Part shown: piece by piece, positions 1,425 to 41,124 of the stretch
How positions within the stretch are numbered: position 1 is the stretch's first letter
Layout: each line of letters begins with the position of its first letter
Assembly: GCA_964496475.1 (NCBI GenBank)
Contig: CAZBZS010000009.1
Location: 64 to 64,063, forward strand
DNA from: an uncultured Chloroflexota bacterium
GTDB taxonomy: Bacteria; Chloroflexota; UBA11872; VXNJ01
Length of the DNA: 64,000 bases
Direction of reading: 5' to 3'
Position numbers and translations under genes: made by a program
The notes under the pieces: model-generated
The model's input: the letters and a program-made list of their open reading frames with translations, nothing else
What the model was told of the DNA's origin: nothing
The model's database searches: none

Positions 1425-4001
1425 TTGCGGTGGAGGACCGCCGGAACACGGAGGATTGGGTGCGAGCGGGAGATCGAGGGTGACGGGACACTGGCAGGAC
1501 CGAATCCGGCCGTCCGGTTTAAGGCGGCGTCGCTGATGCGGGCCGCACGCGGGCGGGCGGTGGCTTTCCATCTGCTGATGATGGCGCTGTTCGGCGCGGC
1601 GACGGTCGTGTCGCTGCGGCCGTTGCTGGTGAATGCGGCGGACGGGGTGGCGATTAAACCAGCAGGCGATCAGCTGTGGCAGGTCTCGTTGCTGGAAGGT
1701 CAGCTTCGCGCTCTGCTGAAGGAGCCAAGCACATTCTTTCAAGGCTATTTCTACTACGGGATGGGCGACGCCCTATACGGCTCCGATTTGTTGCTGGCGC
1801 TACTCCTGATCTTCGCGCCGTTGCGGCTGGCGCTGGGGAACGCCGACCTAGCTTTCAACCTCACGTGGCACATCGCCTTCTGGCTGAACGCCGTCCTGAT
1901 GTACGTCGCGGTGCTGGCGCTGACCCGCAATCGGTGGGCGGCGCTGTTGGCGGGGGCGGTGTTCGGATTCGGGTCGATTCAGATCAACTATGCACAGTCG
2001 CATTTTCAGTATGCCGGCTCGTGGTGGATTCCGCTGGCTCTGCTCTTCAGCGTGCGATTCGAGCGGACGAAGAGCTGGAAGGATTTCACCGCCGCCGTGT
2101 TGTGCGTGTGGCTCCAATTCGTGACCGTGCCGATGCTCGCGTACATTGCGGGATTCGTGGTGCTGACGTTTGCTGTGATTCCCGGGCTCTGGTGGTCGGC
2201 GCGGAACCGGAACTGGCGAGTTCCCCTGCGCATGCTCGTCGCGACGACGGTGGTGACGGCAGCGTTCTTGCCGGTGGTAATCGGCTACTTTGAATTTTCC
2301 GGCGACTGGAACGCCCAGCGGGATATCACCGAGGTCCAGAGTGGATCGCTGCAATTGCAGGATTACCTCTCGCCGTCTTCCCGGCTGTACTGGTACGAGG
2401 GGATGCAGGAGCGCTTTCCGGTGCCGACAGGGGAGCGTCGGGCTTTCCCGGGATTAGTGCCGCTGGCGGTAGGGCTGCTGGGCTTGGTTCTGGGTGGAAT
2501 GGCGCTGGTGCGGAGGGAGCGATTCGGTTGGTACGCGGTCGGGGCGCTGACGCTGGTGATCGGGTCGGTGGCGCTCACGCTTGGACCGGCCTGGAAGGTG
2601 AACGAGACGGTGACGGATATCGAGTTGCCGTACCTGTTCTTGTTCGAGAATTTCTCCATGTTCAGGGCGGTGCGGGTGGTTGCCAGATTCGCCGTGCTGG
2701 GGAACGTGGCGCTGGCGTTGCTGGCGGGGATCGCGGTGGCGATGGTGGGGCGGCGCTTTCCCTGCCGTCCACGGATGGCCGGGCTGCTGGGGGTCGGACT
2801 TGCGGCGGCGGTGCTGGTGGAGTCGTTCACCGCTCCGCTGAACGTGAACCCGGCGCCGGAGGACGTGGACCTGGAAAGGCTACTGGCCAGCGCCCGGCCG
2901 GGTCCGACGCTGTTCGTGCCCGTGAGCGGCGCCGAGGAGGTGCGCAGGCTCTGGTTCGTGACCAAGGCGGAGAGCGGTCCGCTGGTGAACGGCTACTCCG
3001 GTTTCATCTGGCCGCAGTACTGGTACTTCCGTGATGCCGCGGCGGGGGTGACAGTGGCAAACGTCTCTGGACTGGCCCGGGGTCTCGCGGCGTACGGGGT
3101 GCGAAACGTGGTCCTAGAGCGACCGAAGCTGGTTCCGGAACAGATCGCCGCATGGGAAACGTTGGGGGCGGACCCGGCGGTGGAAGCGGTGACGCAGGAG
3201 GGAGCGTGGACGCATATGCGACTGGCCCCGGCGAGCGGACCGGCGGAGCAGGCGTGGAGCGAGTTGGAGGCGGTGATGTTGCTGAAGGCGGCGCCGGCGG
3301 ACGCCGGCTTGCTGACCTGGTTGACGTTGTCGAACAATCGTGCGGAGCCGTGGATGCCGCGGAATGGGTCGCACGTTCGGCGCACGCTGGTGAAGTGGAG
3401 AAACGGAGACGGGAGTTTGGTACTGGAGTTCGAGACCGATTTGCTGCCACCGCCGTTCCTGGTCGGGGAGAATTCGCACAGTCTGATTGTGCATCTGTTC
3501 ACACCGGCGGAAACGGGTCGTTATGAGGTGACGATGGAGGCCGACGGGGAGACAATTGTGCACCAGGTGGTGGACGTGGGAGACTCGCCGCCGGCGTCAT
3601 TCGATGGAACGGTGGTGGGGCTCGCGGCCAGGTTGACCAGGATGTCGGCACGATCGTTCGAGGGCAGGCCGGGAGAGAAATTCGTATTGCAGGTGGACGC
3701 GCTGAACACCGGGTCGATGGCCTGGGAAGGGGTGGCGAACATCAGGCTGGGATGGCGCTGGTACCGGGTGCTGCCCGACGGCGATGAGATCGAGATGCCG
3801 CAATACGAGGGGAGAATCCCGCTGGTGGGTCACCTGACCGGCGAAGTCTGGCCAGGGAACGGCTACTCGTTCCGGGGACTGGTGACGACGCCGCCGGAGC
3901 CGGGGACGTTCAAGCTGCGGGTGTCGATGGTGGCTGAGATGGTGGGATGGCTCGATGCGCCGCCAGTGGTGGTGGAGGTGGTGCTGAAACGGGAGGAGTA
4001 A
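1425..4001 (+). CDS. large polytopic membrane protein (N-terminal ~12 TM, C-terminal ~400-aa beta-rich soluble domain), putative GT-C-type or YfhO-like extracytoplasmic glycosyltransferase; paralog A
   Basis: 858-aa ORF with many hydrophobic helices. A long collinear similarity to the 4396..6951 protein includes FFxGxxxxGxGDALYxSDLL and AVxxFGxIQINYA. Alignment with the paralog suggests the start is the ATG at 1536. Confidence 0.75.
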   Translation: MRWRTAGTRRIGCEREIEGDGTLAGPNPAVRFKAASLMRAARGRAVAFHLLMMALFGAATVVSLRPLLVNAADGVAIKPAGDQLWQVSLLEGQLRALLKEPSTFFQGYFYYGMGDALYGSDLLLALLLIFAPLRLALGNADLAFNLTWHIAFWLNAVLMYVAVLALTRNRWAALLAGAVFGFGSIQINYAQSHFQYAGSWWIPLALLFSVRFERTKSWKDFTAAVLCVWLQFVTVPMLAYIAGFVVLTFAVIPGLWWSARNRNWRVPLRMLVATTVVTAAFLPVVIGYFEFSGDWNAQRDITEVQSGSLQLQDYLSPSSRLYWYEGMQERFPVPTGERRAFPGLVPLAVGLLGLVLGGMALVRRERFGWYAVGALTLVIGSVALTLGPAWKVNETVTDIELPYLFLFENFSMFRAVRVVARFAVLGNVALALLAGIAVAMVGRRFPCRPRMAGLLGVGLAAAVLVESFTAPLNVNPAPEDVDLERLLASARPGPTLFVPVSGAEEVRRLWFVTKAESGPLVNGYSGFIWPQYWYFRDAAAGVTVANVSGLARGLAAYGVRNVVLERPKLVPEQIAAWETLGADPAVEAVTQEGAWTHMRLAPASGPAEQAWSELEAVMLLKAAPADAGLLTWLTLSNNRAEPWMPRNGSHVRRTLVKWRNGDGSLVLEFETDLLPPPFLVGENSHSLIVHLFTPAETGRYEVTMEADGETIVHQVVDVGDSPPASFDGTVVGLAARLTRMSARSFEGRPGEKFVLQVDALNTGSMAWEGVANIRLGWRWYRVLPDGDEIEMPQYEGRIPLVGHLTGEVWPGNGYSFRGLVTTPPEPGTFKLRVSMVAEMVGWLDAPPVVVEVVLKREE

Positions 4002-12751: not shown

Positions 12752-13018
12752 GAGCGGGTCGGTCGACGGTGAACGAACCGCGCCGACCGTCGGTTTCGGA
12801 TTGAATTGACAGGTCGAACGCTGGCTTGACGAGCCCGATCGGGAGTTAGTATCGCAGCCTCATCAACGGACACTGGTATCGACGGATCCGGAGCGGCGGC
12901 TCCCAATCTGCTCAGAACGTGCGGGCGCATAGTCTTTCCTGAGCGGAGCGGGGTCCCAACAGTCGTCGGAAACACGAAGTCGTTGACCTTCCAACGGGAC
13001 CCCGCCATCAGATGCGCT

Positions 13019-13204
13019 TCACGCACGTGGACACACTGGTTTTGCACGACCTCGAGGGCAACTGCTGGCGCCGGCATCACACGTCTGCTCTTTGGGGGTC
13101 TGTAGCCAGGGTTGGTCTGCAATGCCGAGGGCGTCGCCGCGTTGTTGATCGGTGGTGATGAACAGAATGTTCGGATAGTCGTTAGGTATGGTGTTCTGGC
13201 GCAC
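13019..13204 (-). pseudogene. sulfatase N-terminal remnant (truncated, frame lost after ~45 aa)
   Basis: The translation …PNILFITTDQQRGDALG… is a sulfatase N-terminal strand and metal-site motif. The ORF collapses after 61 aa and no downstream continuation exists in any frame. Confidence 0.55.
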
Positions 13205-13299
13205 AATCGGTAGGCGCTATTCTTACTTGATCGTACAGATCTAGCGAGTTCTGAATGTTCGCGATCGACTTTCCTCTTCATCGATCTCACTAACCGATA

Positions 13300-14664
13300 G
13301 TGCCACCCAACTTCCTTTTTCTCATTGCCGATGACCATCGGCACAATGCGATTGGTTCGTTGGGAACGCCTGCAGTTGCGACGCCAAATCTTGACGCGCT
13401 GGCAGCTGCGGGTACAGCGTTGACCCATACATACATCATGGGTTCGACCTCGGCGGCTGTTTGCATGCCGAGTCGGGCCATGCTGCTGACCGGACGAAGT
13501 CTGTTTCGGGTTTTCGGACCCAATCCGGGTAACGTTTCGCCATACCCGATGGATCCAGAGATACGAACGTTTCCGGAGCTTCTGCGAATGGCGGGTTATC
13601 GAACATACGGCGTGGGCAAGTGGCATAACGAACCTGGGCTGTATGCACGGAGTTTTGACGATGGCGGGAGCATTTTCTTCGGTGGTATGTCCGAGCACGC
13701 GGCGGTTCCGGTTCACACCTTCCATCCGCGAGGCATGTATCCGTTGGATGCAGCGACTCCCGGACGTGTTTTCTCATCCGAGCTGTTTGTAGATAGCGCG
13801 GCCGAGTTGCTCCGTACACATCCTGCCGAACGTCCATTTTGTATGTATGTGGCGTTTACGGCTCCCCATGATCCGCGCACGCCTCCACCGGAATTTGTGC
13901 GCAAGTATCCAGTGTCAGACATTGAGTTACCGCCCAATTTTGTCCCCACGCATCCGTTTGACAACGGGGAGTTGGGTGGACGTGATGAGCAGCTGGCGGC
14001 CCATCCTCGTGATCCTGACGAGGTGCGTCGTCATATTGCTGCCTATTACGGAATGGTCAGTCATCTCGATGCACAGATTGGCCGTTTGCTCGACGAGCTC
14101 GAGGCGACCGGTTACGCGAATGACACCATCGTCGTTTATACGGCCGACCATGGGTTGGCTCTTGGACAACACGGCTTGCTCGGGAAGCAGAATCTGTATG
14201 ACCACAGTCTGCGGGTTCCGCTCATCATCCGTGGCCCGGATGTGCCCCGGGACGAACGACGCGATGGCCTCTGCTATCTGATGGATGTGTTTCCGACAAT
14301 CCTTGACCTGGCCGGGCTGGAGCTGCCTGAGGAGTGCGAAGGCTTGAGCCTCTTACCGATGATCCAGGGGGCAGATCTGGATGTCCGCGAGTCCATCTTT
14401 GCGGCGTTCCAGAGGGATCAGGAACTCGGGGTTGAAGATTCCTTTCAGCGGGCCGTTCGCCAGGGCGACTGGAAGCTGATTGATACCCGGGCGGCAGGAG
14501 AGCAGCACAATCAGCTCTTCAATCTTGGGTCGGATCCGTGGGAGATGCGGAATCTGACAACTCAGGCAGATCAGGCTGAGCGGCTGGACGAGATGCGCAG
14601 ACTGATGATGCACTGGCGTGCTGTTGTTGGAGACACGCTGTCGGACGAATGGACGGTCCGATAG
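13300..14664 (+). CDS. sulfatase (formylglycine-dependent, C-x-P-x-R type), no signal peptide
   Basis: A GTG start is followed by PNFLFLIADDHRHN and then CMPSRAMLLTGR, the CxPxR formylglycine motif. An in-frame stop 2 codons upstream excludes any leader peptide. Confidence 0.85.
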   Translation: MPPNFLFLIADDHRHNAIGSLGTPAVATPNLDALAAAGTALTHTYIMGSTSAAVCMPSRAMLLTGRSLFRVFGPNPGNVSPYPMDPEIRTFPELLRMAGYRTYGVGKWHNEPGLYARSFDDGGSIFFGGMSEHAAVPVHTFHPRGMYPLDAATPGRVFSSELFVDSAAELLRTHPAERPFCMYVAFTAPHDPRTPPPEFVRKYPVSDIELPPNFVPTHPFDNGELGGRDEQLAAHPRDPDEVRRHIAAYYGMVSHLDAQIGRLLDELEATGYANDTIVVYTADHGLALGQHGLLGKQNLYDHSLRVPLIIRGPDVPRDERRDGLCYLMDVFPTILDLAGLELPEECEGLSLLPMIQGADLDVRESIFAAFQRDQELGVEDSFQRAVRQGDWKLIDTRAAGEQHNQLFNLGSDPWEMRNLTTQADQAERLDEMRRLMMHWRAVVGDTLSDEWTVR

Positions 14665-15041: not shown

Positions 15042-15854
15042 TTGCCTGAATCCGGCGTCCCCCGCGACGAACAATCCATCCCGGCGAGTCCTTTCGCGCG
15101 TCTGAATCACTTTCTGGCAGTTGCCTACCAGGTCCTGTCCACAAATCCGCGCCTGCTGCTCTTTCTGGGCCTGAACGCGGCGGTCAACATTGTCATCCTG
15201 TGGGCCTTCCTGGGCACTGTGGTGGACGACCCTGGCGGCGAACCGACCGCCGGCGACCCCGGGCTTCTGCTCGATTTCATCCGCTCGGCGGCACAGAATC
15301 TCCCTCTCCACTTCTTTCAGTTCGCACTTTTGGTCGCCGCCCTCGCGGCGGTTCGGGGTGAGACCATGACCGCCGGGGACGCCTTCCGCGTAGCCCGCGC
15401 GCGCATCGTGCCTGTCGTTATTCTTGCCCTCCTCACCACCACATTCGGCCTAGCCACGCAGCTCGTGACCGAATCTTTGGTCGAACGTGAAGCCGGTATC
15501 GTCAGCCTTCCCATTGTCCTGGCCTGGTTCAGCTGGTTCGCCATCGACCTCCTAGCCCTGTCCCTGGTGGCCGACACGAGCGGCAGCATGATGGCCTACC
15601 TGGCGGGCGCCGGCCGGCTGGCCCGGCGAGTCTGGGGTGACGTTCTCATCCTGGTCTTCGTTTTCATGCTCACGACCAGCTTCCTGGCCCCGCTTCTGAT
15701 TGGCGGCGTCGCGTCCGGCGCCGTGGGCGCGGAACCCTCCAGGCAGGCGGTGCTGGTCATCGCATCTATATCGACCATCGTCCACAACATCATTTTGTCT
15801 TTTATCTACATTTACGGCGCCCGGCTGTACATCTACGCGGTCACGGCTCGCTAG
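15042..15854 (+). CDS. hypothetical polytopic membrane protein
   Basis: TTG start with a GGACGGAG ribosome binding site. About 7 hydrophobic helices are present and no known motif was recognised. Confidence 0.55.
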   Translation: MPESGVPRDEQSIPASPFARLNHFLAVAYQVLSTNPRLLLFLGLNAAVNIVILWAFLGTVVDDPGGEPTAGDPGLLLDFIRSAAQNLPLHFFQFALLVAALAAVRGETMTAGDAFRVARARIVPVVILALLTTTFGLATQLVTESLVEREAGIVSLPIVLAWFSWFAIDLLALSLVADTSGSMMAYLAGAGRLARRVWGDVLILVFVFMLTTSFLAPLLIGGVASGAVGAEPSRQAVLVIASISTIVHNIILSFIYIYGARLYIYAVTAR

Positions 15855-15934
15855 CTGCCTGACTCCAGGCACCACCTCGCGCTTGGATTAGAATTGAAAC
15901 AAGCGTCTAGTAGTCGACTGGAACGGAGAAAATC

Positions 15935-16789
15935 GTGTTCGCAACTATTGGCCGGACCTGGGACATCATGAAGATCTGCTGGGGGGTGTTGCAAAAAGAC
16001 CGTGAGCTGCTGGTCTTTCCGCTGGTCTCCGGCGTGGCCATGCTGGTCCTGGCGGCGATCACGTTCGCGGCGACGTCCTCCAGCGGCGCGCTGCAGCGGA
16101 TCGAGGGCGCGGCGGGCAGCCAGTCGGCCAGCGCCCTGCAGGCAGGAGACATCGCCCTCCTGGCTACCATCTACTTCGTGGGCGCGTTCATCGTCATCTA
16201 CTTCAATTCGGCTCTGATAGGGGCGGCGATGATCCGAATTCGGGGCGGCGATCCCTCGGTGTGGGATGGCTTCGCGATAGCCAATTCACGTCTGCCGCAG
16301 ATCATCGGCTGGGCGATAATTTCCGCTTCGGTGGGCCTCATCCTTCGGATACTGCGCAACCAGGCCAGGAACAATATCGTAGGCCAGATCGCCCTGGCCA
16401 TCGCCGGCGGCGTCTGGGCTTACATGACGTTCATGGTCGTGCCGATTCTGATTATTGAGGGTGTGGGTCCGATCAAGGCGATCAAGCGTTCCGGAAGCCT
16501 ATTCAAGCGCACCTGGGGCGAACAAGTCGTCTCCAATTTCGGCTTCGGAATTATCAGCTTCCTGGCCATCGTGGTGGCGGCGATACCGGCGGTGTTGGTA
16601 GGTATGGTCTCGCCGGTGGCCGGAATCGTGCTGGGTGTGATGACCGTCGGAACAGCCGTGGTCACCGTCGCCGCCCTCGAGGGCATCTTCAAAGCGGCCC
16701 TCTACGAATACGTGGCCGAGGATGTGGTGGCGGAGGACTTCTCCTCCGACCTGCTGGGCGGGGCCTTCGTCCCGAAGGGCAGCCACTAG
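15935..16789 (+). CDS. uncharacterised polytopic membrane protein, tandem paralog 1
   Basis: A GTG start follows a GGAG ribosome binding site. Motifs IRIRGGDP, ANSRLPQIIGWAI and RTWGEQ are shared with the next gene. Confidence 0.7.
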   Translation: MFATIGRTWDIMKICWGVLQKDRELLVFPLVSGVAMLVLAAITFAATSSSGALQRIEGAAGSQSASALQAGDIALLATIYFVGAFIVIYFNSALIGAAMIRIRGGDPSVWDGFAIANSRLPQIIGWAIISASVGLILRILRNQARNNIVGQIALAIAGGVWAYMTFMVVPILIIEGVGPIKAIKRSGSLFKRTWGEQVVSNFGFGIISFLAIVVAAIPAVLVGMVSPVAGIVLGVMTVGTAVVTVAALEGIFKAALYEYVAEDVVAEDFSSDLLGGAFVPKGSH

Positions 16790-16904
16790 GCTCCGTCAGA
16801 GCTACATCCCGGCGGTAGAAGTCCGGCCGTCCGCCGACCCGCCGACCCGCCGACGTATAGAGTCCAGTCGCGTCACCTCTCCGCCCGCGACATCGGAGAC
16901 CCAA

Positions 16905-17750
16905 TTGTTCTCGACCTTCGGCCGGAATTGGGTACTAGTACGAATCGACTGGAGCGTGCTACGGAAAAACCGCAAGCTGCTGGATTTCCCGCCGGTTTCC
17001 GGCATGGCGATGATCACCCTCGCCGCCGTGACCCTAGCCGCGGCCTCTGCCAGTGGCGGTCTCGAACGTCTTGAGGCGGTCCGACGCAACGAGACCTCCG
17101 CCTCCCTGCAGGCCGTCGACATCTTGATCGTCGTAACGCTTTACTTCGCCACGTTCCTCGCTGCCATCTATTTCAACGCAGCCCTCGTCGGCGCCGCCAT
17201 GATCCGTATCCGCGGCGGCGACCCCGGCTTCTGGGACGGATTCGCCATCGCCAGCGACCGTCTGCCCCAAATCATCGGCTGGGCGATCGCCACCGCCACC
17301 CTTGGCCTTTTCTTGCTCCACCTTTACTCCCGCAACACATTGCCCGTGATCGCGGTCGCCATCGCCGGAGGTGTGTGGGACTACATGAACTTTATGGTCA
17401 TCCCCGTCTTGATCGTGGATAACGTCGGCCCGTTCGAGGCCATCAAGTGTTCAGTCCGCCTCTTCAGATGCACCTGGGGTGAGCAGATCCTTTCAATCAT
17501 TGGGGTTGGCTTCTTGAGGCCCGTGGACGTTCTAGCCGCCGCGGTACCGGCGGTGATCGTCGGCCTGCTGGTAGATCCGGTCGCCGGCATCGCACTGGGA
17601 CTCGTCAGCGTCTCCTCCACTGTCCTCACCATCATTGCGCTGGAAAGTATCTTCAGAGCCGCTGTGTACGAGTACGCCACCGGAGGATTCGTGACAGAAG
17701 AGTTGGCCTCTGACTTTCTCCATGGCGCCTTCGTCCCTGAGGCCCGCTAA
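16905..17750 (+). CDS. uncharacterised polytopic membrane protein, tandem paralog 2
   Basis: The track ORF starts at 16722, but alignment with paralog 1 and a GGAG ribosome binding site place the start at TTG 16905. Motifs IRIRGGDP, SDRLPQIIGWAI and CTWGEQ are shared with paralog 1. Confidence 0.65.
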   Translation: MFSTFGRNWVLVRIDWSVLRKNRKLLDFPPVSGMAMITLAAVTLAAASASGGLERLEAVRRNETSASLQAVDILIVVTLYFATFLAAIYFNAALVGAAMIRIRGGDPGFWDGFAIASDRLPQIIGWAIATATLGLFLLHLYSRNTLPVIAVAIAGGVWDYMNFMVIPVLIVDNVGPFEAIKCSVRLFRCTWGEQILSIIGVGFLRPVDVLAAAVPAVIVGLLVDPVAGIALGLVSVSSTVLTIIALESIFRAAVYEYATGGFVTEELASDFLHGAFVPEAR

Positions 17751-34554: not shown

Positions 34555-35327
34555 TTGAGATTCCAGCTCAGCCGGGTGCGTGCGGGCCTGGCCGAGCCAT
34601 CCCGCTGGGATCTTCACTACGTGGAGCGCACGGGCTCGACGAATGACGACGCCAGGGCTGCGGCCAGTGAGGGCGCGGTGATGGAGCGGTGTTCCTGGCC
34701 GGATTTCAGACGGCCGGGCGCGGTGCCAGGGGACGGAGCTGGCAATCGCCGCCCGGGGGTTCGCTACTGATGTCGGTGGTGCTGCGCCCAGAGAAGGGGA
34801 CGCCGGTGACGCTGCTGACCAACCTGGGCGTACTGGCGCTGACGGAAGGTCTTAGGATCGCTACCGGACTCAACACTCAGATCAAATGGCCGAACGATGC
34901 GGTGATCCGTGACCTCAAAGTGGGTGGCATCCTAGTGGAGCTGGTAGCAGATGCGGTGATCGTGGGGATCGGCGCGAATTTGAATTTCCCGGCGACAGGA
35001 ATCCTAGAACCTGACTACCCGGCCACGACGGTGCAGGACGAACTTGGCCGGGCGTGCGATCGGGAGGCGGTAACCGTCGCAGTGCTGGACTCGCTGGGCG
35101 AGCTCTATGACGAACTACGGGCGGAGCCCGACGCATTGGACGATCGCTGGCGGGAACTTTCATCTGTCGTCAGCCGGCAGGTGATAGTGGAAACTGAATC
35201 GGAGACGCTGGCCGGGTTGGTAACCGGTTTTAGCGACGACGGCCGTCTGTTGTTACGAGAGGCCGACGGATCGGAGAGAGCGATTCTCGCCGGTCGAGTC
35301 CGGTTGCCCAGGCTAGGGGCAGATTAA
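34555..35327 (+). pseudogene. birA: biotin-[acetyl-CoA-carboxylase] ligase (group I BirA) interrupted by a +1 frameshift near 34689
   Basis: Frame A reads …HYVERTGSTNDDARAAASEGAVMER then stops at 34770. Frame B reads VFLAGFQTAGRGARGRSWQSPPGGSL… and continues to 35327. Joined, they give the canonical …EGAVMERVFLAGFQTAGRGRRGRxW… biotin-binding core. Confidence 0.65.
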
Positions 35328-35926
35328 CCGCCTGGAACTAAGTCCGACGGGCCCATCACGACACCAAGAACGCGGGCGTTGGCGGCACTCATCACGCCGG
35401 ACACTTCGGCGGCGAGGGAGCGATCGGTACTGCCGTGAGTTGCCACGAGCACGGTGCCGTCACAAAGTGGGGCGAGCGTGAGGGCGGAAGGAGAATCGGA
35501 GACGGGTCCGGCCAGAACGACGACCCAGGCACCCGATTCTCTCGCCTGAATAAGATAGTCGCCGGCGGCGGTAGAGGCGCTGAGATCGTCGGCGTCATCG
35601 GCGGCGGATCCGCCCACCACCAGCCCCAAACCCTCAACACCGCCAACTCCGCTGTGCGTGCTGGGTGAGGCGCCCGCGCGGAGCGCCTCGGCCAGACCCG
35701 GTTCGGCGGGGACGTCGAAGTGCTCGTGAAGACCGCCGCCGGTACCGGGTAGTTCGACAAGGACGGTCTCCCGCCCGGCGGCCGCCAGAGACTTCGCCAG
35801 CCCGATGGCGACGCTCACGCCGTCATCCTTCGCCGTGAAAGGCGCAACCAGGATGATGCGGGTGCGATTGGCGCCCAGTCGCCCGAAAATGCTAGCCCGC
35901 AGCGCCGGCGCGCCTTGCCCGTTCAT
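35324..35926 (-). CDS. BY-kinase/ParA-like P-loop domain protein with degenerate Walker motifs (probable pseudo-kinase)
   Basis: Domain architecture resembles the CpsD/Wzc C-terminal kinase. Walker A is replaced by APFTAKDDGVS, Walker A' and B are not conserved, and there is no Tyr-rich tail. The start at 35926 overlaps the upstream stop as ATGA. Confidence 0.55.
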   Translation of the reverse strand: MNGQGAPALRASIFGRLGANRTRIILVAPFTAKDDGVSVAIGLAKSLAAAGRETVLVELPGTGGGLHEHFDVPAEPGLAEALRAGASPSTHSGVGGVEGLGLVVGGSAADDADDLSASTAAGDYLIQARESGAWVVVLAGPVSDSPSALTLAPLCDGTVLVATHGSTDRSLAAEVSGVMSAANARVLGVVMGPSDLVPGG

Positions 35927-36540
35927 CCGCTCTGACCTCCGGCCGGCTCCTGGAGCCATTGGTAAGCAAGCCCGAGCGCGAGTCCGGCAAGCAGCCCGAG
36001 GATGAGGCCGGCCGGCAGGGCCAGCTCTAGGCGGGGAGTGATGGGCCTTTCCGGAATCCGAGCCGGCGCGATCTGGACGATTTCCAGATGGCCGCCGTCA
36101 AGATCGTCCATAGCGGCGGCAACGGCCACGCGGGCCAGCCCGTCGGCCACGGCCGCGGCCCGCCTGGCGTTCTCATCTTCGAACTCGATAATCAGGCGCA
36201 TTTCTTTCGGTAGGGCCCGAGCGCGGGTGCGATCGGCTATGGCCAGCGGTTCCAACCCACCGGCTTCCGCTTCGGTGAGGCGAGCGGCGAAAGTCTCAGA
36301 CTCGATCCAGGCGGCGGTATTGCCAGCCAGGCGATCGGCGGCTTCGGCCACGCCGAGATCGGCTTCAGTGGACCGCAAGGACACGCTGGTGACCGACCTG
36401 AATAGCGGCTCCTGCCACAACGAAACAACCAACGCGGCGACGAGGCCGGCCAACCCGGCCATTACCGATAGGAAGATCACGAACCGGTAATCCCGGCGTA
36501 GAACTTGTGCCCGCGTCAGCGTCGAAGTCGCACCTGCCAT
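35923..36540 (-). CDS. polysaccharide co-polymerase (Wzz/chain-length determinant)-like protein, 2 TM
   Basis: An N-terminal TM is followed by a periplasmic region and a C-terminal TM PAGLILGLLAGLALGLAY. It lies in an EPS gene context. Confidence 0.6.
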   Translation of the reverse strand: MAGATSTLTRAQVLRRDYRFVIFLSVMAGLAGLVAALVVSLWQEPLFRSVTSVSLRSTEADLGVAEAADRLAGNTAAWIESETFAARLTEAEAGGLEPLAIADRTRARALPKEMRLIIEFEDENARRAAAVADGLARVAVAAAMDDLDGGHLEIVQIAPARIPERPITPRLELALPAGLILGLLAGLALGLAYQWLQEPAGGQSG

Positions 36541-37256
36541 CAGTCAAACCGGGCCAGCACGGGCAAGTCCAAGATGTCCTCTACGTCTTCGGCATACAAC
36601 CGCCGCCGGCCAACGTCCCAGACCACTACCAACACGGCGGCGATCACGATCGCCGCGATTTCCCGGATGGCCACATCGAGAACAAGATCGCTGCTGCTGC
36701 CCGGAACGGGAGCCAGGTCGATCAGGGACAGGCTCGCGACCTCGTAGATAGTTGGATAGAGGACAGCGATCTCTTCGGCGAGCACATCAGCGGCGGCCTG
36801 AGCGAGGGCGACGGATCGCACGGCGTCAGGTGTGGTCATTCTCAGTTCGAGTCCGCGATGGGTGCGATCCGTGGCGAGGGCGGCGGCGACTTCTCCGGAA
36901 GTCATTTCGGAATCGTTGTCGCGTGAAAAGCGCGCCGCGACGAGGTCGGCGAATGCGGTTCCCCGCACGATGCGGCCCAGATCGTCGACGATGAAATCGC
37001 TGGCAGTGGCGCGACTGACTTCAACGTCGTACTGACCGTCGCCGGCCATGCGGGCGGCGACGAGAACTTCCACGCGGGCCGGTTGGGTTTCCGGCCGGGC
37101 GGCGTCGGCGATCAGCGAACCGATCAAGGTGGCGACGGCCACGAGAGCCAGAAATGCCCAGCCACGGCGGAAGACGTTGCCCAAGCGCTCAGCCGGCATC
37201 GGGGGCCGCCCGGCGAGCGATCCCGGCCAAATGTTCGGCGCGGGCCATTTCCACAA
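36540..37256 (-). CDS. polysaccharide co-polymerase (Wzz)-like protein, ending with BY-kinase linker-like motif
   Basis: A TM is followed by a periplasmic region and a second TM. The C-terminus YAEDVEDILDLPVLARF resembles the start of the Wzc kinase domain. The likely start is the Met at about 37199. Confidence 0.55.
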   Translation of the reverse strand: MWKWPAPNIWPGSLAGRPPMPAERLGNVFRRGWAFLALVAVATLIGSLIADAARPETQPARVEVLVAARMAGDGQYDVEVSRATASDFIVDDLGRIVRGTAFADLVAARFSRDNDSEMTSGEVAAALATDRTHRGLELRMTTPDAVRSVALAQAAADVLAEEIAVLYPTIYEVASLSLIDLAPVPGSSSDLVLDVAIREIAAIVIAAVLVVVWDVGRRRLYAEDVEDILDLPVLARFD

Positions 37257-38316
37257 AATGCTTCATTTCTCTCACAAATACCGTCTCGTCAAACCGCTGC
37301 GCATTCTGGATCATCCGATTGGCAGCATACCGGGAATCGTCGAAATCCTTCAGCAGTCGGGTCAAGGATTCGACGGTGGGCTCGGTGAAGAACTCGCCGG
37401 TTTCCCCGGAGATCACGGTGTCGAGAGCGCCGCCGCCGGCGAAGGCGATGACCGGCCGCCCGGCGGCCTGGGCCTCAACGGGAGTGATGCCGAAATCCTC
37501 TTCGCCCGGAAAGATCAACGCCCGGCAGCGGGAGAAGTGACGCCGGACGACATCATCGTCCTGCCGGCCAAGGAATTCCACGGTCGGCCCGGCCAGGGCC
37601 TCCAAGGCCTGGAGATCGCGCCCGGCGCCGATTACCTTCAGCCGTAGGCCCAGTTCCGTGCAAGCGCGCACGGCCAGATCGATGCGCTTGTAGGGCACCA
37701 GCCGCGAGACCACCAAGAAATAGTCTTCGACGGCGCTTGCCGGGGTGAATGCGGAGGTGGCGACGGGGGGGTAGATAACCTCCGACTCCCTTCGGTAAAA
37801 GCGCCTGATCCTGTTGGCCACCGCCCGCGAGATGGCGACGAAGAGATCCACGCGCCGGGACGTTCGCCGGTCCCACGCCCGCATGAGAGCGAGCAATGGT
37901 CGCATCGCGCTGCGAAGGGCCGGGGGCACATCCTCACGGGCGAGATATTCGTTGGGGCTCCAGACGAAGCGGGTAGGTGTCAGGCAGTAGCAGATGTGCA
38001 AGGTTTCGGGCGGTGTTCGCACGGACTTACAGAATGCGCTGGCGTTGCTGATGACCACGTCATAACCGTCAAGGCGGATGGCGTTGAACGCCAGTGGATA
38101 GACGGGCAGGTACCAGCGATGGTGGCGAATGACTCCGGGCAGGCCCTGTATGAAATTCGTTCTGATGTCCAGCTCGCCGAATCTAGCGTCGACCAACCCG
38201 GAGCCGTAGATCGACGTGTGGACAGGTGCGTCGGGATACATCGCCGAGAGTTGGAGGAGAACGTTTTCCGCGCCGCCCATCTGGTTGAGCCAGTCGTGCA
38301 CGAGGCCGATTTTCAT
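37189..38316 (-). CDS. glycosyltransferase family 4
   Basis: Begins MKIGLVHDWLNQMGGAENVLLQL, so the probable start is at 38316 although the ORF extends to 38364. The C-terminus is GT4-like and ends PVEAQAAGRPVIAF. Confidence 0.8.
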   Translation of the reverse strand: MKIGLVHDWLNQMGGAENVLLQLSAMYPDAPVHTSIYGSGLVDARFGELDIRTNFIQGLPGVIRHHRWYLPVYPLAFNAIRLDGYDVVISNASAFCKSVRTPPETLHICYCLTPTRFVWSPNEYLAREDVPPALRSAMRPLLALMRAWDRRTSRRVDLFVAISRAVANRIRRFYRRESEVIYPPVATSAFTPASAVEDYFLVVSRLVPYKRIDLAVRACTELGLRLKVIGAGRDLQALEALAGPTVEFLGRQDDDVVRRHFSRCRALIFPGEEDFGITPVEAQAAGRPVIAFAGGGALDTVISGETGEFFTEPTVESLTRLLKDFDDSRYAANRMIQNAQRFDETVFVREMKHFVEMARAEHLAGIARRAAPDAG

Positions 38317-38369
38317 CGAGCTAGCTGTACTTCCCACGAGCATTGTTGACAGGTGAGATCCCACTCTCC

Positions 38370-39600
38370 CGGGTTTGTGGTTGTAAAAACACTCCAGCCC
38401 GGAAGGGGACTCTCATGGAACATGCTAATACGCGACCGACCAGCCACAGCCACCGTCTGTCTCTTTTAACGGCGGACGCGAGTTACGGAACAGGCGTCAG
38501 CAGTTACGGAAATGAATTTCATAACTGCTGTAACACCAACGTTACCCACTAGCCACTAGAACGTTTTTTCCGGATTTCCGGTGGGGCTCGGGCAAGTCGG
38601 CTTTATAGGTTTGGGAGGGGGTGTACAGAAGAGTGAAGGTTGTGGGTTTTGTCCACAAGCGGCTGGAGGCTGGATTTGCTGAGGTCTGCTGGCCGGTCCG
38701 TCCCTGTGAATTGCGCTTGAAAGAGTGGCTTCTGTGGTGGAGGCGTATGGCGGCCGTCGGGTTGGCCGCTCACAGGTTTGGGTCCACTATCTTGTGGTGG
38801 GCTTGTGGAGGTTCGGGTGGCGTGGAAATTAGAGGTCCACAGGGAAGGATTCGCTGAAAACAGGATTGGGTCGTTTTTGTGGATGGCTTATGGAGAAGGG
38901 TATTTCATAGTGTATTGGTTATTTGTTGAGTGCCTTTTCAGTCTGTTGTTTTCCACGCCGTGGGCGCATCGCACCCAGCCAGATATTGGAATATGAGATT
39001 TATTTCCTATCAAGGATATTATTTTTCGGATTCGGATATCCATAGAAATTTCGTGTATTTCCAGGAAATTATAATGAGAGGGAGAGGAGAAATGAGCGGT
39101 TGGTGGGAGCAAAATGTAGGGTTGGGAATGGGAGGGGACGGGATTCCTTCAAAAAAGGACAGGGGATTGGGCGGGCGATGAGAAGCCGGCGGAAAAAGGC
39201 GGACTGGAGGTATGCGCTGGATGTTTGGAGCAGTGATTGAGAAGGGGTATGGAAACTCATCGGTCTGGGAGCGCGGGGCGTCGGGCCCGGAGATTCGGGC
39301 AGCTGACAACCGCTGGCGCGGGGAGATACAGACTCAATAATCAGGTTGACGGTAGGGGCGATCCGGGTCTTTTCTTGTGCCCCCATGCTCTTAGGTCGAT
39401 GGTCGGCCTGGCCGTTCTCCGCCACTGCGACAAGCTCGGACGCGATCGGGCAGGTGAAGCGAATCAGCTTCCGCTGCTGGCGGTGCTTCCCTGCCGGTTC
39501 AAGTCCTGCGATCTACGCAGACCCCACACCACCCTCGACGGCTCCCCGCCAACGATCGTTCTTGTAAAACAAGGTTGGTAGGAACTACAGCCAGCGTGCG
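38370..39600. other. 1.25-kb AT-rich, cytosine-depleted non-coding island inside the EPS locus
   Basis: No credible ORF is present. Plus-strand composition is G+T then G+A rich with very few C for about 700 nt. Repeated TTGTGG(T)GG motifs and G-quadruplex-type runs such as GGGTTGGGAATGGGAGGGGACGGG (39119..39142) occur. Confidence 0.6.
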
Positions 39601-39618
39601 GCGCGGTAGCGGCTCCAG

Positions 39619-41124
39619 CTAGTACGCGCCGTCGCCACGAATCACGGCGGGGATGGTGCGCAGAATGATCTTGATATCGAGCCCCAAGGACCAGTGCCCG
39701 ACGTAGTAGGTGTCGAGCATGACCATCTCCTCGAAGGAGAGGGTGCTACGTCCGCTGACCTGCCAGAGCCCGGTGAGACCGGGCAGGACGCGCAGGCGGG
39801 TGTGCGCCCAGTCGTCGTACTGGGCGACCTCGTCAGGGACCTGGGCCCGCGGCCCGACCATACTCATATGCCCCATAATCACGTTGATGAACTGGGGCAC
39901 TTCGTCGAGGCTGGTGCGGCGCAGCAACCGTCCCACCTGGGTCCGGCGGGGGTCGTCCTTTCGCTTGAACAACGGCTCGGAGGAGGAGCCGGGATACAGA
40001 TCCTCCATCATCTTTTCCGCCCCGAGCACCATGGAGCGGAACTTGTGGAGCCGGAACTGACGCCCGTTGCGGCCGACGCGCACCTGCTGGAAAAGGATGG
40101 GTCCGCGGCTATCGAGTTTTATGGCGATGATGACCAGCAGCAGAAGCGGCGACAGCAGAGTCAAAAGGAGAGAGGCCATAACGGTGTCGAGCGCCCGTTT
40201 CTGCACATAGTTGAAACCGGAGATTTCGTTGGTGCTGAGAGTAAAGAGCGGGATGCCGCCGATTTCCTCCGTGTGCAGCCGCCCGGCCTGCACATCGGCC
40301 AAGTCGGGCACGATGGTGCACCGAATTCCGTTGGACCGGCAGGCGGCTACGGCGTCGCTGACGGCCAGGGCGGAAGAGGGCGGTAAGGCGACGACGGCCC
40401 GATCGGCGCCGTTTTCCCGTAGGGCGGCAGCGACACCGTCGGGCCCGGCCAATCGCCGGAACCTGCCGAAGTCTTCGTTATCATCCATCTCGTGATCCAC
40501 GAAACCAACGAGCAGCAAACCTGAAGCGGGGGCCGCCGCCAACTGCTGCATCAACATCTTGGCCATGTTGCCGCGCCCGACCACCACGACACGCTCCACA
40601 TCCCGTCCACGCTTGAACCGGGCGATGCGCAGCGAGCGCAGGGCATATCGCCAGAAGGCGATCAGCCCAAAGCCGGCTAGGAGGAGATATCCAAACATCA
40701 GGCGGGAGAAAAACGCAGGCCGAAAAAGAAAGAACACGATGATTACGGCGGCGGTCGCGAGCAGGGCGGCCATAGCCAGTTTCGGCACTTCGTCCAGCCA
40801 GCGGATGGACCGGCGGCTCGCGTAGGAGCCGTAGAAATGGAGCGCAAGAAGCATGACCGCGACAAAAGTCACTCCGACCGGCCAATATTCGTCCAGCGGA
40901 GTGAACTGAAATTCGGTCAGGTCCGGTCCGAGGCGGAGCTCATACCGGAGCCAGTGCGCCAGAAAAAAGGCTCCGGTAATCGCGACAATATCGCCCAGCA
41001 AGGTCACGAGTTGCCAGCGGACGCGACCGCCGGCCCGCCCTTGCGGCGAATCCGGAGCCGGGCCGGCAGCGGGCGATGCCGTCTTCAAGAAGGTTCCGAA
41101 GCCAGCTGGTAGGCGTCGCGGCAT
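39619..41124 (-). CDS. polyprenyl glycosylphosphotransferase (WbaP/CpsE-type initiating sugar transferase)
   Basis: An N-terminal TM block is followed by the C-terminal motif …PLFKRKDDPRRTQVGRLLRRTSLDEVPQFINVIMGHMSMVGPR. Confidence 0.85.
   Translation of the reverse strand: MPRRLPAGFGTFLKTASPAAGPAPDSPQGRAGGRVRWQLVTLLGDIVAITGAFFLAHWLRYELRLGPDLTEFQFTPLDEYWPVGVTFVAVMLLALHFYGSYASRRSIRWLDEVPKLAMAALLATAAVIIVFFLFRPAFFSRLMFGYLLLAGFGLIAFWRYALRSLRIARFKRGRDVERVVVVGRGNMAKMLMQQLAAAPASGLLLVGFVDHEMDDNEDFGRFRRLAGPDGVAAALRENGADRAVVALPPSSALAVSDAVAACRSNGIRCTIVPDLADVQAGRLHTEEIGGIPLFTLSTNEISGFNYVQKRALDTVMASLLLTLLSPLLLLVIIAIKLDSRGPILFQQVRVGRNGRQFRLHKFRSMVLGAEKMMEDLYPGSSSEPLFKRKDDPRRTQVGRLLRRTSLDEVPQFINVIMGHMSMVGPRAQVPDEVAQYDDWAHTRLRVLPGLTGLWQVSGRSTLSFEEMVMLDTYYVGHWSLGLDIKIILRTIPAVIRGDGAY

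Follow-up and report, generated by a model that had tools for sequence, protein, structure and literature searches.

A probable lineage-specific non-coding insertion with a C-rich sense strand in a polysaccharide operon of an uncultured marine Chloroflexota bacterium

Introduction

Non-coding elements are known from polysaccharide operons in which the processivity of transcription matters, such as the JUMPstart/ops element with RfaH in Enterobacteria and the EAR, UpxY and LoaP leaders. The eps-associated RNA (EAR) of the Bacillales is located between epsB and epsC and is intergenic within its operon. Here we describe a non-coding spacer of 1302 nt, hereafter the island, that lies within a polysaccharide operon of a marine Chloroflexota metagenome-assembled genome (MAG), between the genes for a priming sugar transferase (ST) and a GT4 glycosyltransferase. 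It is contained in a 64,000-nt stretch of contig CAZBZS010000009.1, which was analyzed at full length (the window). The island resembles these elements in being non-coding and in its place in such an operon, and shares the intergenic position with EAR. It differs from them in that no Rfam family and no ops-like or structured element was found, nor any NusG paralog in the neighbourhood or in the loci fetched for comparison. Moreover, the polysaccharide antitermination leaders prevent termination, whereas the island more probably causes it.

Regions of Rho utilization (rut) and Rho-dependent polarity form a second group of described systems, with lambda tR1 and the leaders of rho, mgtA and corA as examples. 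Nadiras et al. (2018; PMC6144790) observed Rho-dependent termination in vitro on every template tested whose C>G bubble exceeded 78 bp or 700 %·bp, and %C, %CA, %CT, %YC, %ACA and %CAC are positive descriptors of Rho-dependent termination (PMC6144790). The criterion of RhoTermPredict is a C/G ratio >1 over 78 nt (PMC6407284). Rho is widely conserved, with Cyanobacteriota, Mycoplasmatota and Streptococcaceae as exceptions (PMC12360218).

The island and rut regions have in common a long stretch of RNA that is apparently free of ribosomes, a C>G bubble without interruption (in the island far above the published empirical thresholds), a YC-rich and CA/CT-rich composition with very little secondary structure, and the lack of a convincing intrinsic terminator nearby. 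They differ in size, because rut regions typically measure 70–80 nt and the island holds ~2 × 450 nt, and in history, because the island was very probably acquired by insertion inside an operon and is not conserved in the sister lineage.

Results

The expanded gap is restricted to three close lineages

The window had previously been read by a model from its letters alone (the sequence-only reading), which placed a long non-coding stretch at 38370–39600. The long gap was confirmed, with other bounds: it extends from the ST stop to the GT4 ATG, at 38317–39618. It is the longest non-coding stretch in the window but not, as had been stated, the only long one, with ~550 nt at 12752–13300 also uncalled.

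Loci encoding relatives of the GT4 protein were fetched from genomes and metagenomes, and ST and GT4 were located in each. The nearest relatives of the window are Chloroflexota MAGs. In ~30 Chloroflexota loci in which ST directly precedes GT4, the spacer between them measures 2–90 nt, for example 27 nt in L005 and L006 (77% identity) and 40 nt in L007 (63%). The intermediates of 82% identity that were recovered by protein search (L167–L173) have a spacer of 60 nt, and their synteny is that of the window from the PTP phosphatase gene through the dihydrolipoamide-dehydrogenase-type (Pyr_redox_2) gene. Of this 60-nt junction, only GCTGG at the left and TAGCTCG at the right are retained at the edges of the window's gap. 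Expanded gaps were found only in three lineages of at least 89% identity, namely the window (1302 nt), L004 (90%; at least 836 nt, a lower bound because the contig ends inside the gap) and L084, L174 and L175 (89%; 538–541 nt; the L084 type). The 60-nt spacer of the 82% relatives, together with an expansion confined to the closest three lineages, indicates that the island arose after the split from the 82% relatives. We conclude, with high confidence from these comparisons, that the island is a lineage-specific non-coding insertion.

The three lineages share little of their islands. L004 and L084 have GT4 genes that are 94% identical, yet ~19 nt of island in common, directly before the ATG. 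The window and L004 share a GT4-proximal block of ~270–320 nt; module C, the window's part of it, matches L004 519–836 with 69% identity over 319 nt including gaps (BLAST), and 80% of the aligned columns are identical, against 77.5% at four-fold sites. Short C-rich pieces, a G-quadruplex (G4) motif among them, are also common to these two. Module C is missing in the L084-type islands. In module A, the block that comes just after ST, the window and L084 4066–4183 have 80% identity (119–125 nt), whereas the flanking genes reach 70–72% at their four-fold sites. A tandem duplication of ~250 nt is present in the L004 island (7–408 vs. 258–705, 74–90% identity), and a unit composed of a T-run, GAARRAATCCCGYYCC and C-tracts (the T-run/GAATCCCG unit) is present in three copies in L004 and in one copy in the window. 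Within a single lineage, the islands of L084, L174 and L175 are 99.6% identical, being as stable as genes. Between lineages the island is thus remodelled by insertion, deletion and duplication, and within a lineage it is not hypervariable.

Absence or lack of conservation in close relatives had been named beforehand as the outcome that would speak against a conserved element. It is what these loci reveal, and a conserved functional element or RNA is refuted. The proposal of a scar of foreign low-GC DNA was half right. An insertion is supported, since the island is absent at ≤82% identity, where spacers are 27–60 nt, and its length and content differ among the three lineages. No foreign donor was found: searches for similarity to plasmid and phage DNA, and for the module A pattern in viral contigs, returned nothing.

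The sense RNA of the island is C-rich and G-poor

Over 780 nt (38561–39340) the plus strand has 16% C and 36.5% G, compared with 31% C in the window, and its description as almost devoid of C was an overstatement. Per 300 nt, C falls to 11.3% within the island but no lower than 20.7% anywhere else in the window. The strong excess of G over C on the plus strand holds: of the 78-nt windows in the 64 kb, 83 reach G/C ≥4, every one of them in the island, and 320 reach G/C ≥3, of which 280 are in the island. The strand is indeed G+T-rich and then G+A-rich, with 37% G and 31% T at 38561–38960 and 43% G and 27% A at 39071–39340. The island is less AT-rich than had been claimed, because its GC content is 55% against 63% in the window and falls to ~40% solely in a core of ~110–200 nt. 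Repeated TTGTGG elements were confirmed as a modest enrichment, with 4 copies in 38561–38960 vs. 0.66 in local dinucleotide shuffles (P ~0.002).

ST and GT4 are both encoded on the minus strand, a point that the sequence-only reading left unmentioned, and the operon transcript of the island is, therefore, the C-rich, G-poor one. What appears on the plus strand as the G4 motif and the TTGTGG repeats is this C-rich, CA-rich composition read from the complementary strand.

The GC skew is gene-specific in this genome, being strong and opposite on individual coding strands. Per 300 nt, coding genes reach −0.42 at 1–1000 (gene ending at 556) and up to +0.36 at 1425–4001 (858-aa gene). Because individual genes are equally skewed, little can be concluded in this genome from GC skew alone, and the earlier argument that such asymmetry speaks against a decayed gene fails. 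If the island were what remains of a plus-strand gene, for example one for a Wzx/Wzy-type membrane protein that has since been lost, its G+T-rich coding strand would explain the skew, and the G+T-rich composition does resemble that of membrane-protein genes. This is nonetheless very unlikely. No frame has similarity to a protein family in a six-frame Pfam search of the gap at E ≤1, or to a homolog in two six-frame searches among 5.8 billion protein clusters. None of the 13 open reading frames (ORFs) of ≥40 aa in the gap has the GC1/GC2/GC3 pattern of the genome (~0.66/0.47/0.77), and relatives have no gene at the ST–GT4 junction. The public assembly (ENA scaffold HARO18-2_SAMN05992386 scaffold_212, same sequence as the window) has no gene call in the gap. 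Judged by homology and codon-position composition, the island appears to be untranslated. A small conserved ORF in module A was considered and rejected, because the window and L084 differ there by a 1-nt indel and no codon signal is present.

The other intergenic regions of the window are without skew, except for the 76 nt (923–998) directly upstream of tRNA-Leu(TAA) (999–1084). On the tRNA sense strand this segment is 51% C and 13% G, it contains a C-run motif at 956–978, and, besides the island, no other non-coding part of the window is strongly C>G. C-rich leaders as a general trait of the genome were rejected, with this segment as the only similar case.

Two long C>G bubbles have the composition of rut regions

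C>G bubbles were delimited by the published definition, with a 78-nt window and %C ≥ %G. The sense strand of the island contains two of them, of 8223 and 8049 %·bp (Table 1), and both exceed the length of ~78 nt on the non-template strand that serves as a rut criterion. Bubble 1 is C+T-rich and G-poor, and its maximum of %C−%G (43.6) is the highest in the window. Bubble 2 is C+A-rich and carries CCACAA and CC(A)CCACAA repeats, that is, the plus-strand TTGTGG(T)GG elements of the sequence-only reading. The C/G ratio of the island sense strand is 2–7.75 per 78 nt, with the value of 7.75 in bubble 1. Chains of the type (YC N9–13)x6 start at 4.1% of the island positions vs. 2.2% strand-wide, and the enriched words of the island, CAC, ACA, CA and CT, are among the positive descriptors of PMC6144790.

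The predicted minimum free energy per 78 nt is −0.9 to −8 or −10 kcal/mol in the C-rich blocks (−0.9 in bubble 1) vs. −20 to −45 kcal/mol in the coding flanks. Composition and folding thus also point to regular YC dimers, little RNA structure and ribosome-free RNA, as expected of rut regions. No convincing intrinsic terminator was found in the gap, where a single weak 5-bp stem (38396–38411) is at chance. A sense-strand C>G bubble is also present in the L004 island (11,200 %·bp) and, weakly, in the L084-type island (1271 %·bp). From this composition, Rho may load on the sense RNA of the island and exert polarity, a possibility to which we give somewhat less than an even chance.

The AT-rich core may contain an internal promoter

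The AT-rich core contains several palindromes (Table 1), among which ATTATAAT yields a perfect TATAAT on both strands. The folding z-scores of the core are −1.8 and −2.4. A scan with the sigma-70 consensus gave a sole promoter-like site, at 38993–39022 on the plus strand, which is at chance level. An internal promoter in the island is possible, although on this sequence we hold it to be doubtful. A regulatory promoter/attenuator island, one of the earlier suggestions, is the putative functional consequence that we favour on grounds of composition, namely the rut-like sense strand and the palindromic core with TATAAT.

A perfect DnaA box of the high-GC type, TTGTCCACA at 38649–38657, lies inside the palindrome TTGTGG-N7-CCACAA and is the sole perfect match in the 64 kb. 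A replication origin or DnaA-box cluster was rejected: the island has no second box with ≤1 mismatch, and the total in the window is at chance.

A long structured RNA in the island is not supported

The sequence-only reading had also put forward a C-rich structured non-coding RNA encoded on the minus strand. Two parts of the island lend themselves to this idea. The GT4-proximal 244 nt, or module C, fold better than shuffles (z −3 to −4.9). In module A, the left edge repeat pairs with GGGAAGCACCGCCAGC ~100 nt downstream and closes the module into a hairpin, with folding z-scores of −2.8 (sense) and −4.2 (plus strand). Its closing helix is kept in the window and L084 with one compensatory U-A to C-G double change, a count that comes from two sequences only; because just two sequences are available, the evidence for a module A structure is weak.

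A long structured RNA is nevertheless close to refuted. Rfam cmscan of 37800–40200 at E ≤10 gave a sole match, RT-15 inside the ST coding sequence, which is noise, and hence no family in the gap. The 780-nt C-rich part is G-poor and almost without structure (z −1.4 to −1.7 for the C-rich blocks), and the coding flanks yield z-scores similar to those of the folding modules (−2.4 to −4.0). Conservation stops at the nearest lineages: the covariance approach that had been recommended meets a C-rich part that is unalignable among relatives, and, by reading of the alignment and by folding, the hairpin of module C is broken in L004, whose predicted fold differs. ARAGORN detected no tRNA or tmRNA in the island, and TRF no tandem repeats in the gap. 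A tRNA-like GGTTCAAGTCC at ~39487–39497, in module A, was rejected because ARAGORN does not call it and the T-arm is lost in L084.

A single G4 motif is accounted for by base composition

The plus strand of the island, which is the template strand of the operon, contains one canonical G4 motif, GGGTTGGGAATGGGAGGGGACGGG; GGGAGGGGG alone contains none. On the sense strand the motif comes after a T-run and a GAAGGAATCCCG unit. The emphasis that had been laid on G-quadruplex motifs is not borne out, because one motif is no significant enrichment over the 7 in the 64-kb window (~0.14 expected per 1.3 kb).

A template-strand G4 that blocks or modulates RNA polymerase between the operon halves would resemble the promoter-proximal G-quadruplex motifs of bacteria, in that one canonical G3+ motif is present on the template strand and is kept in one relative: L004 carries the homolog CCCGCTCCCTCCCATTCCC, with two such motifs in its island. 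Unlike those motifs, the one found here is single and not enriched, and it is the expected by-product of 36–43% G. It is also missing in the L084-type islands. We regard a G-quadruplex device as very improbable.

Candidate terminal inverted repeats lie at the edges of the island

Short inverted repeats (core CTGTAsTTCC) are present at the two edges of the island, where they pair imperfectly over 28 nt, with 11 nt forming the core of the match. The local alignment score of the edge repeats is 26, compared with 16.7 ± 2.1 in shuffles (z ~4.4; 1 of 300 shuffles reached the same score). In L084 the edge pair is a perfect 10-mer, TGTACTTCCC, and it is precisely at the left repeat that the homology of the window with L084 sets in. 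The edge inverted repeats suggest entry as, or around, a small mobile or palindromic element.

Such repeats might also bound an invertible or switchable promoter segment, leading to phase variation of the downstream half-operon, or the locus might produce an antisense G-rich transcript. The location in a polysaccharide locus would suit a switch, as would the contigs of several assemblies that end inside the island. Inversion is, however, scarcely credible here: the shared modules of the three haplotypes are all co-oriented, no recombinase is encoded among the neighbouring genes, the island is stable at 99.6% among L084, L174 and L175, and the contig breaks lie away from the edge repeats.

Feature coordinates and genomic context

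The coordinates of the features are collected in Table 1.

Table 1. Features of the island and its flanking genes (window positions)
Feature	Position	Strand	Basis and description
Non-coding spacer (whole)	38317–39618, 1302 nt	minus	ST stop to GT4 ATG; very probable lineage-specific insertion or expansion
Priming sugar transferase (ST), upstream flank	39619–41124	minus	Bac_transf PF02397, E=4e-64; CoA_binding_3 PF13727
GT4 glycosyltransferase, downstream flank	37189–38316, ATG at 38316	minus	Pfam PF00534, PF13439
Module A, ~125-nt hairpin-forming block just downstream of ST	39472–39596	minus	homology to L084, folding
Module A hairpin arms	39581–39595; 39477–39492		GCTGGCTGTAGTTCC; GGGAAGCACCGCCAGC
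C>G bubble 1, C+T-rich, G-poor	38968–39425	minus (sense)	area 8223 %·bp, 381 window positions
C>G bubble 2, C+A-rich	38535–39005	minus (sense)	area 8049 %·bp, 394 window positions
AT-rich core, GC ~40%, candidate internal promoter/operator	38961–39075	unstranded	sequence reading, composition
Core palindromes	39034–39041; 39045–39052; 39057–69; 39068–39075		GGATATCC; GAAATTTC; ATTTCC-N-GGAAAT; ATTATAAT
Module C, GT4-proximal, balanced composition	38317–38560, hairpin 38498–38530	minus	alignment to L004
Canonical G4 motif (single) GGGTTGGGAATGGGAGGGGACGGG	39119–39142	plus (operon template strand)	regex G3+N1-7 x4
Edge inverted repeat, right arm	38320–38347, core GCTGTACTTCC at 38324–38334	plus	4–20 nt upstream of GT4 ATG
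Edge inverted repeat, left arm GCTGGCTGTAGTTCCTACCAACCTTGTT	39595→39568	sense (minus), start of island	complementary to right arm

In the order of transcription, the genes of the operon encode an ABC ATPase, a GT4 and ST, followed by the gap and by a GT4, two Wzz-like proteins and one P-loop-like protein; the last three have no Pfam match. This trio (35324–37199, minus strand) is kept in the relatives of 82% identity. Judged by eye, two of its proteins (219 and 205 aa), with hydrophobic segments at either end, resemble Wzz/PCP proteins, and the third, of 200 aa, has a degenerate P-loop or BY-kinase-like appearance.

The window spans two public ENA scaffolds of the same sample, scaffold_435, which ends at ~22462, and scaffold_212, which covers at least 27189–48316. 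As the window joins the two, its assembly is more contiguous. Independent short-read assemblies break inside the island (L002, L003, L166, L175 and L004; 38542–38840). MEGAHIT contigs of the same sample stop at 38840 and restart at 38639, within bubble 2, a Logan contig begins at 38542, and the contigs L175 and L004, from other samples, end inside their own islands. A drop in coverage, sequence-specific errors in the GT/G-rich palindromic part, or strain variation are possible causes of these breaks.

In L084 (4366–4450, minus strand), L174 and L175 the island contains a short antisense frame without a start codon that ends in ...DPDDLPF*, an ending that presumably resembles the acidic C-terminal tip of SSB proteins. 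Elsewhere in the window, the ~550 nt without a called gene at 12752–13300 lie between a 707-aa protein and a sulfatase, whose N-terminus apparently starts near 13310, earlier than in the public gene call. Three tandem paralogous DUF6159 genes are located at 15042–17750.

Discussion

We favour, tentatively and at just short of an even chance, a composite explanation of the island, in which (i) a lineage-specific insertion separated ST from GT4, (ii) the sense RNA loads Rho, and (iii) an internal promoter may be present. Best supported is an insertion of uncertain origin, possibly a small element, with a rut-like composition that was acquired or retained.

By this account, an insertion would have expanded the spacer of ~60 nt that used to separate ST from the glycosyltransferase gene after it in this Chloroflexota polysaccharide operon, and duplication, deletion and replacement, not point mutation, would have shaped it later. 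The island is a mosaic that comprises, in the direction of transcription, a 125-nt hairpin block, a 450-nt C+T-rich block, the AT-rich palindromic core, a 470-nt C+A-rich block and a 250-nt balanced block. Formerly tightly coupled genes would now be separated by 1.3 kb of untranslated RNA. Because the two long unstructured, C>G and YC-rich stretches suit Rho loading, read-through from ST would be terminated or strongly attenuated, leaving the GT4/Wzz half to rely on antitermination or on an internal promoter located in the AT-rich core or in module C. The island may thus uncouple the two halves of the operon.

Several observations weigh against this account. A rho gene was not found in the window or the fetched loci, and its presence is taken from the general distribution of Rho only. 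C>G bubbles are a frequent and non-specific feature, and ones of equal size occur antisense to the gene at 1425–4001 and inside the gene at 1–556. The L084-type island lacks the C-rich blocks, which implies that the property is not required in the clade. For the promoter, the evidence consists of a lone −10 box without an acceptable −35, with the consensus scan at chance.

A mobile-element origin encounters objections of its own. The island resembles miniature inverted-repeat transposable elements (MITEs) and other small palindromic insertion elements in its short candidate terminal inverted repeats, with L084 homology that begins exactly at the repeat, in the insertion into a formerly short spacer, and in the hairpin-like 125-nt module A, which is MITE-sized. 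It differs from them in that no target-site duplication is apparent in comparison with the ancestral-type 60-nt junction, no second copy of any part of it exists in the 64-kb window or in 1.5 Mb of fetched loci, and its interior varies between lineages. Six-frame Pfam and protein-cluster searches gave no transposase similarity.

The main rival of the composite explanation is a neutral scar, in which the island is functionless, decaying junk from one or more small mobile or palindromic elements and local duplications. The skew would then come from slippage or unequal recombination that multiplied C-rich low-complexity units, and the downstream genes would be expressed by read-through. Its restriction to one lineage, with length and content that differ among the closest relatives, is what such a scar would look like, and the alignable parts evolve near the neutral rate (69–80% identity vs. 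70–78% at four-fold sites). The ~250-nt duplication and the repeated T-run/GAATCCCG unit of L004, the edge inverted repeats, and L084-type relatives that manage without C-rich blocks are also in keeping with it. However, the sense C>G sign is kept in two lineages although their sequence is no longer alignable, and 1.3 kb of naked C-rich RNA is expected to be polar whatever its origin, if Rho is present. Since a polar effect is expected in both cases, the neutral scar and the composite explanation differ mainly on whether the effect is selected. We consider the neutral scar unlikely but a serious contender.

A stronger variant of the composite explanation, which we put forward as a speculation with little chance of being right, is that the C-rich blocks consist of a repeat unit (T-run, GAARRAATCCCGYYCC and ~90 nt of C-tracts) that came to serve, after its acquisition, as a 'rut cassette': an insulator or a conditional attenuator, dependent on Rho, that would split the control of the operon into two halves. 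To our knowledge this repeat unit is so far undescribed, and we know of no such operon-internal control element in Chloroflexota.

If the proposed mechanism fails, the island is an ordinary intergenic scar. Either way, three readings of it are removed: a large structured RNA, a G-quadruplex device and an origin-like element. If the mechanism holds, one non-coding insertion turned a coupled gene pair into two transcription units by exposing Rho-loading RNA, which would provide a simple evolutionary route to new regulation of surface polysaccharide in an uncultured marine lineage.

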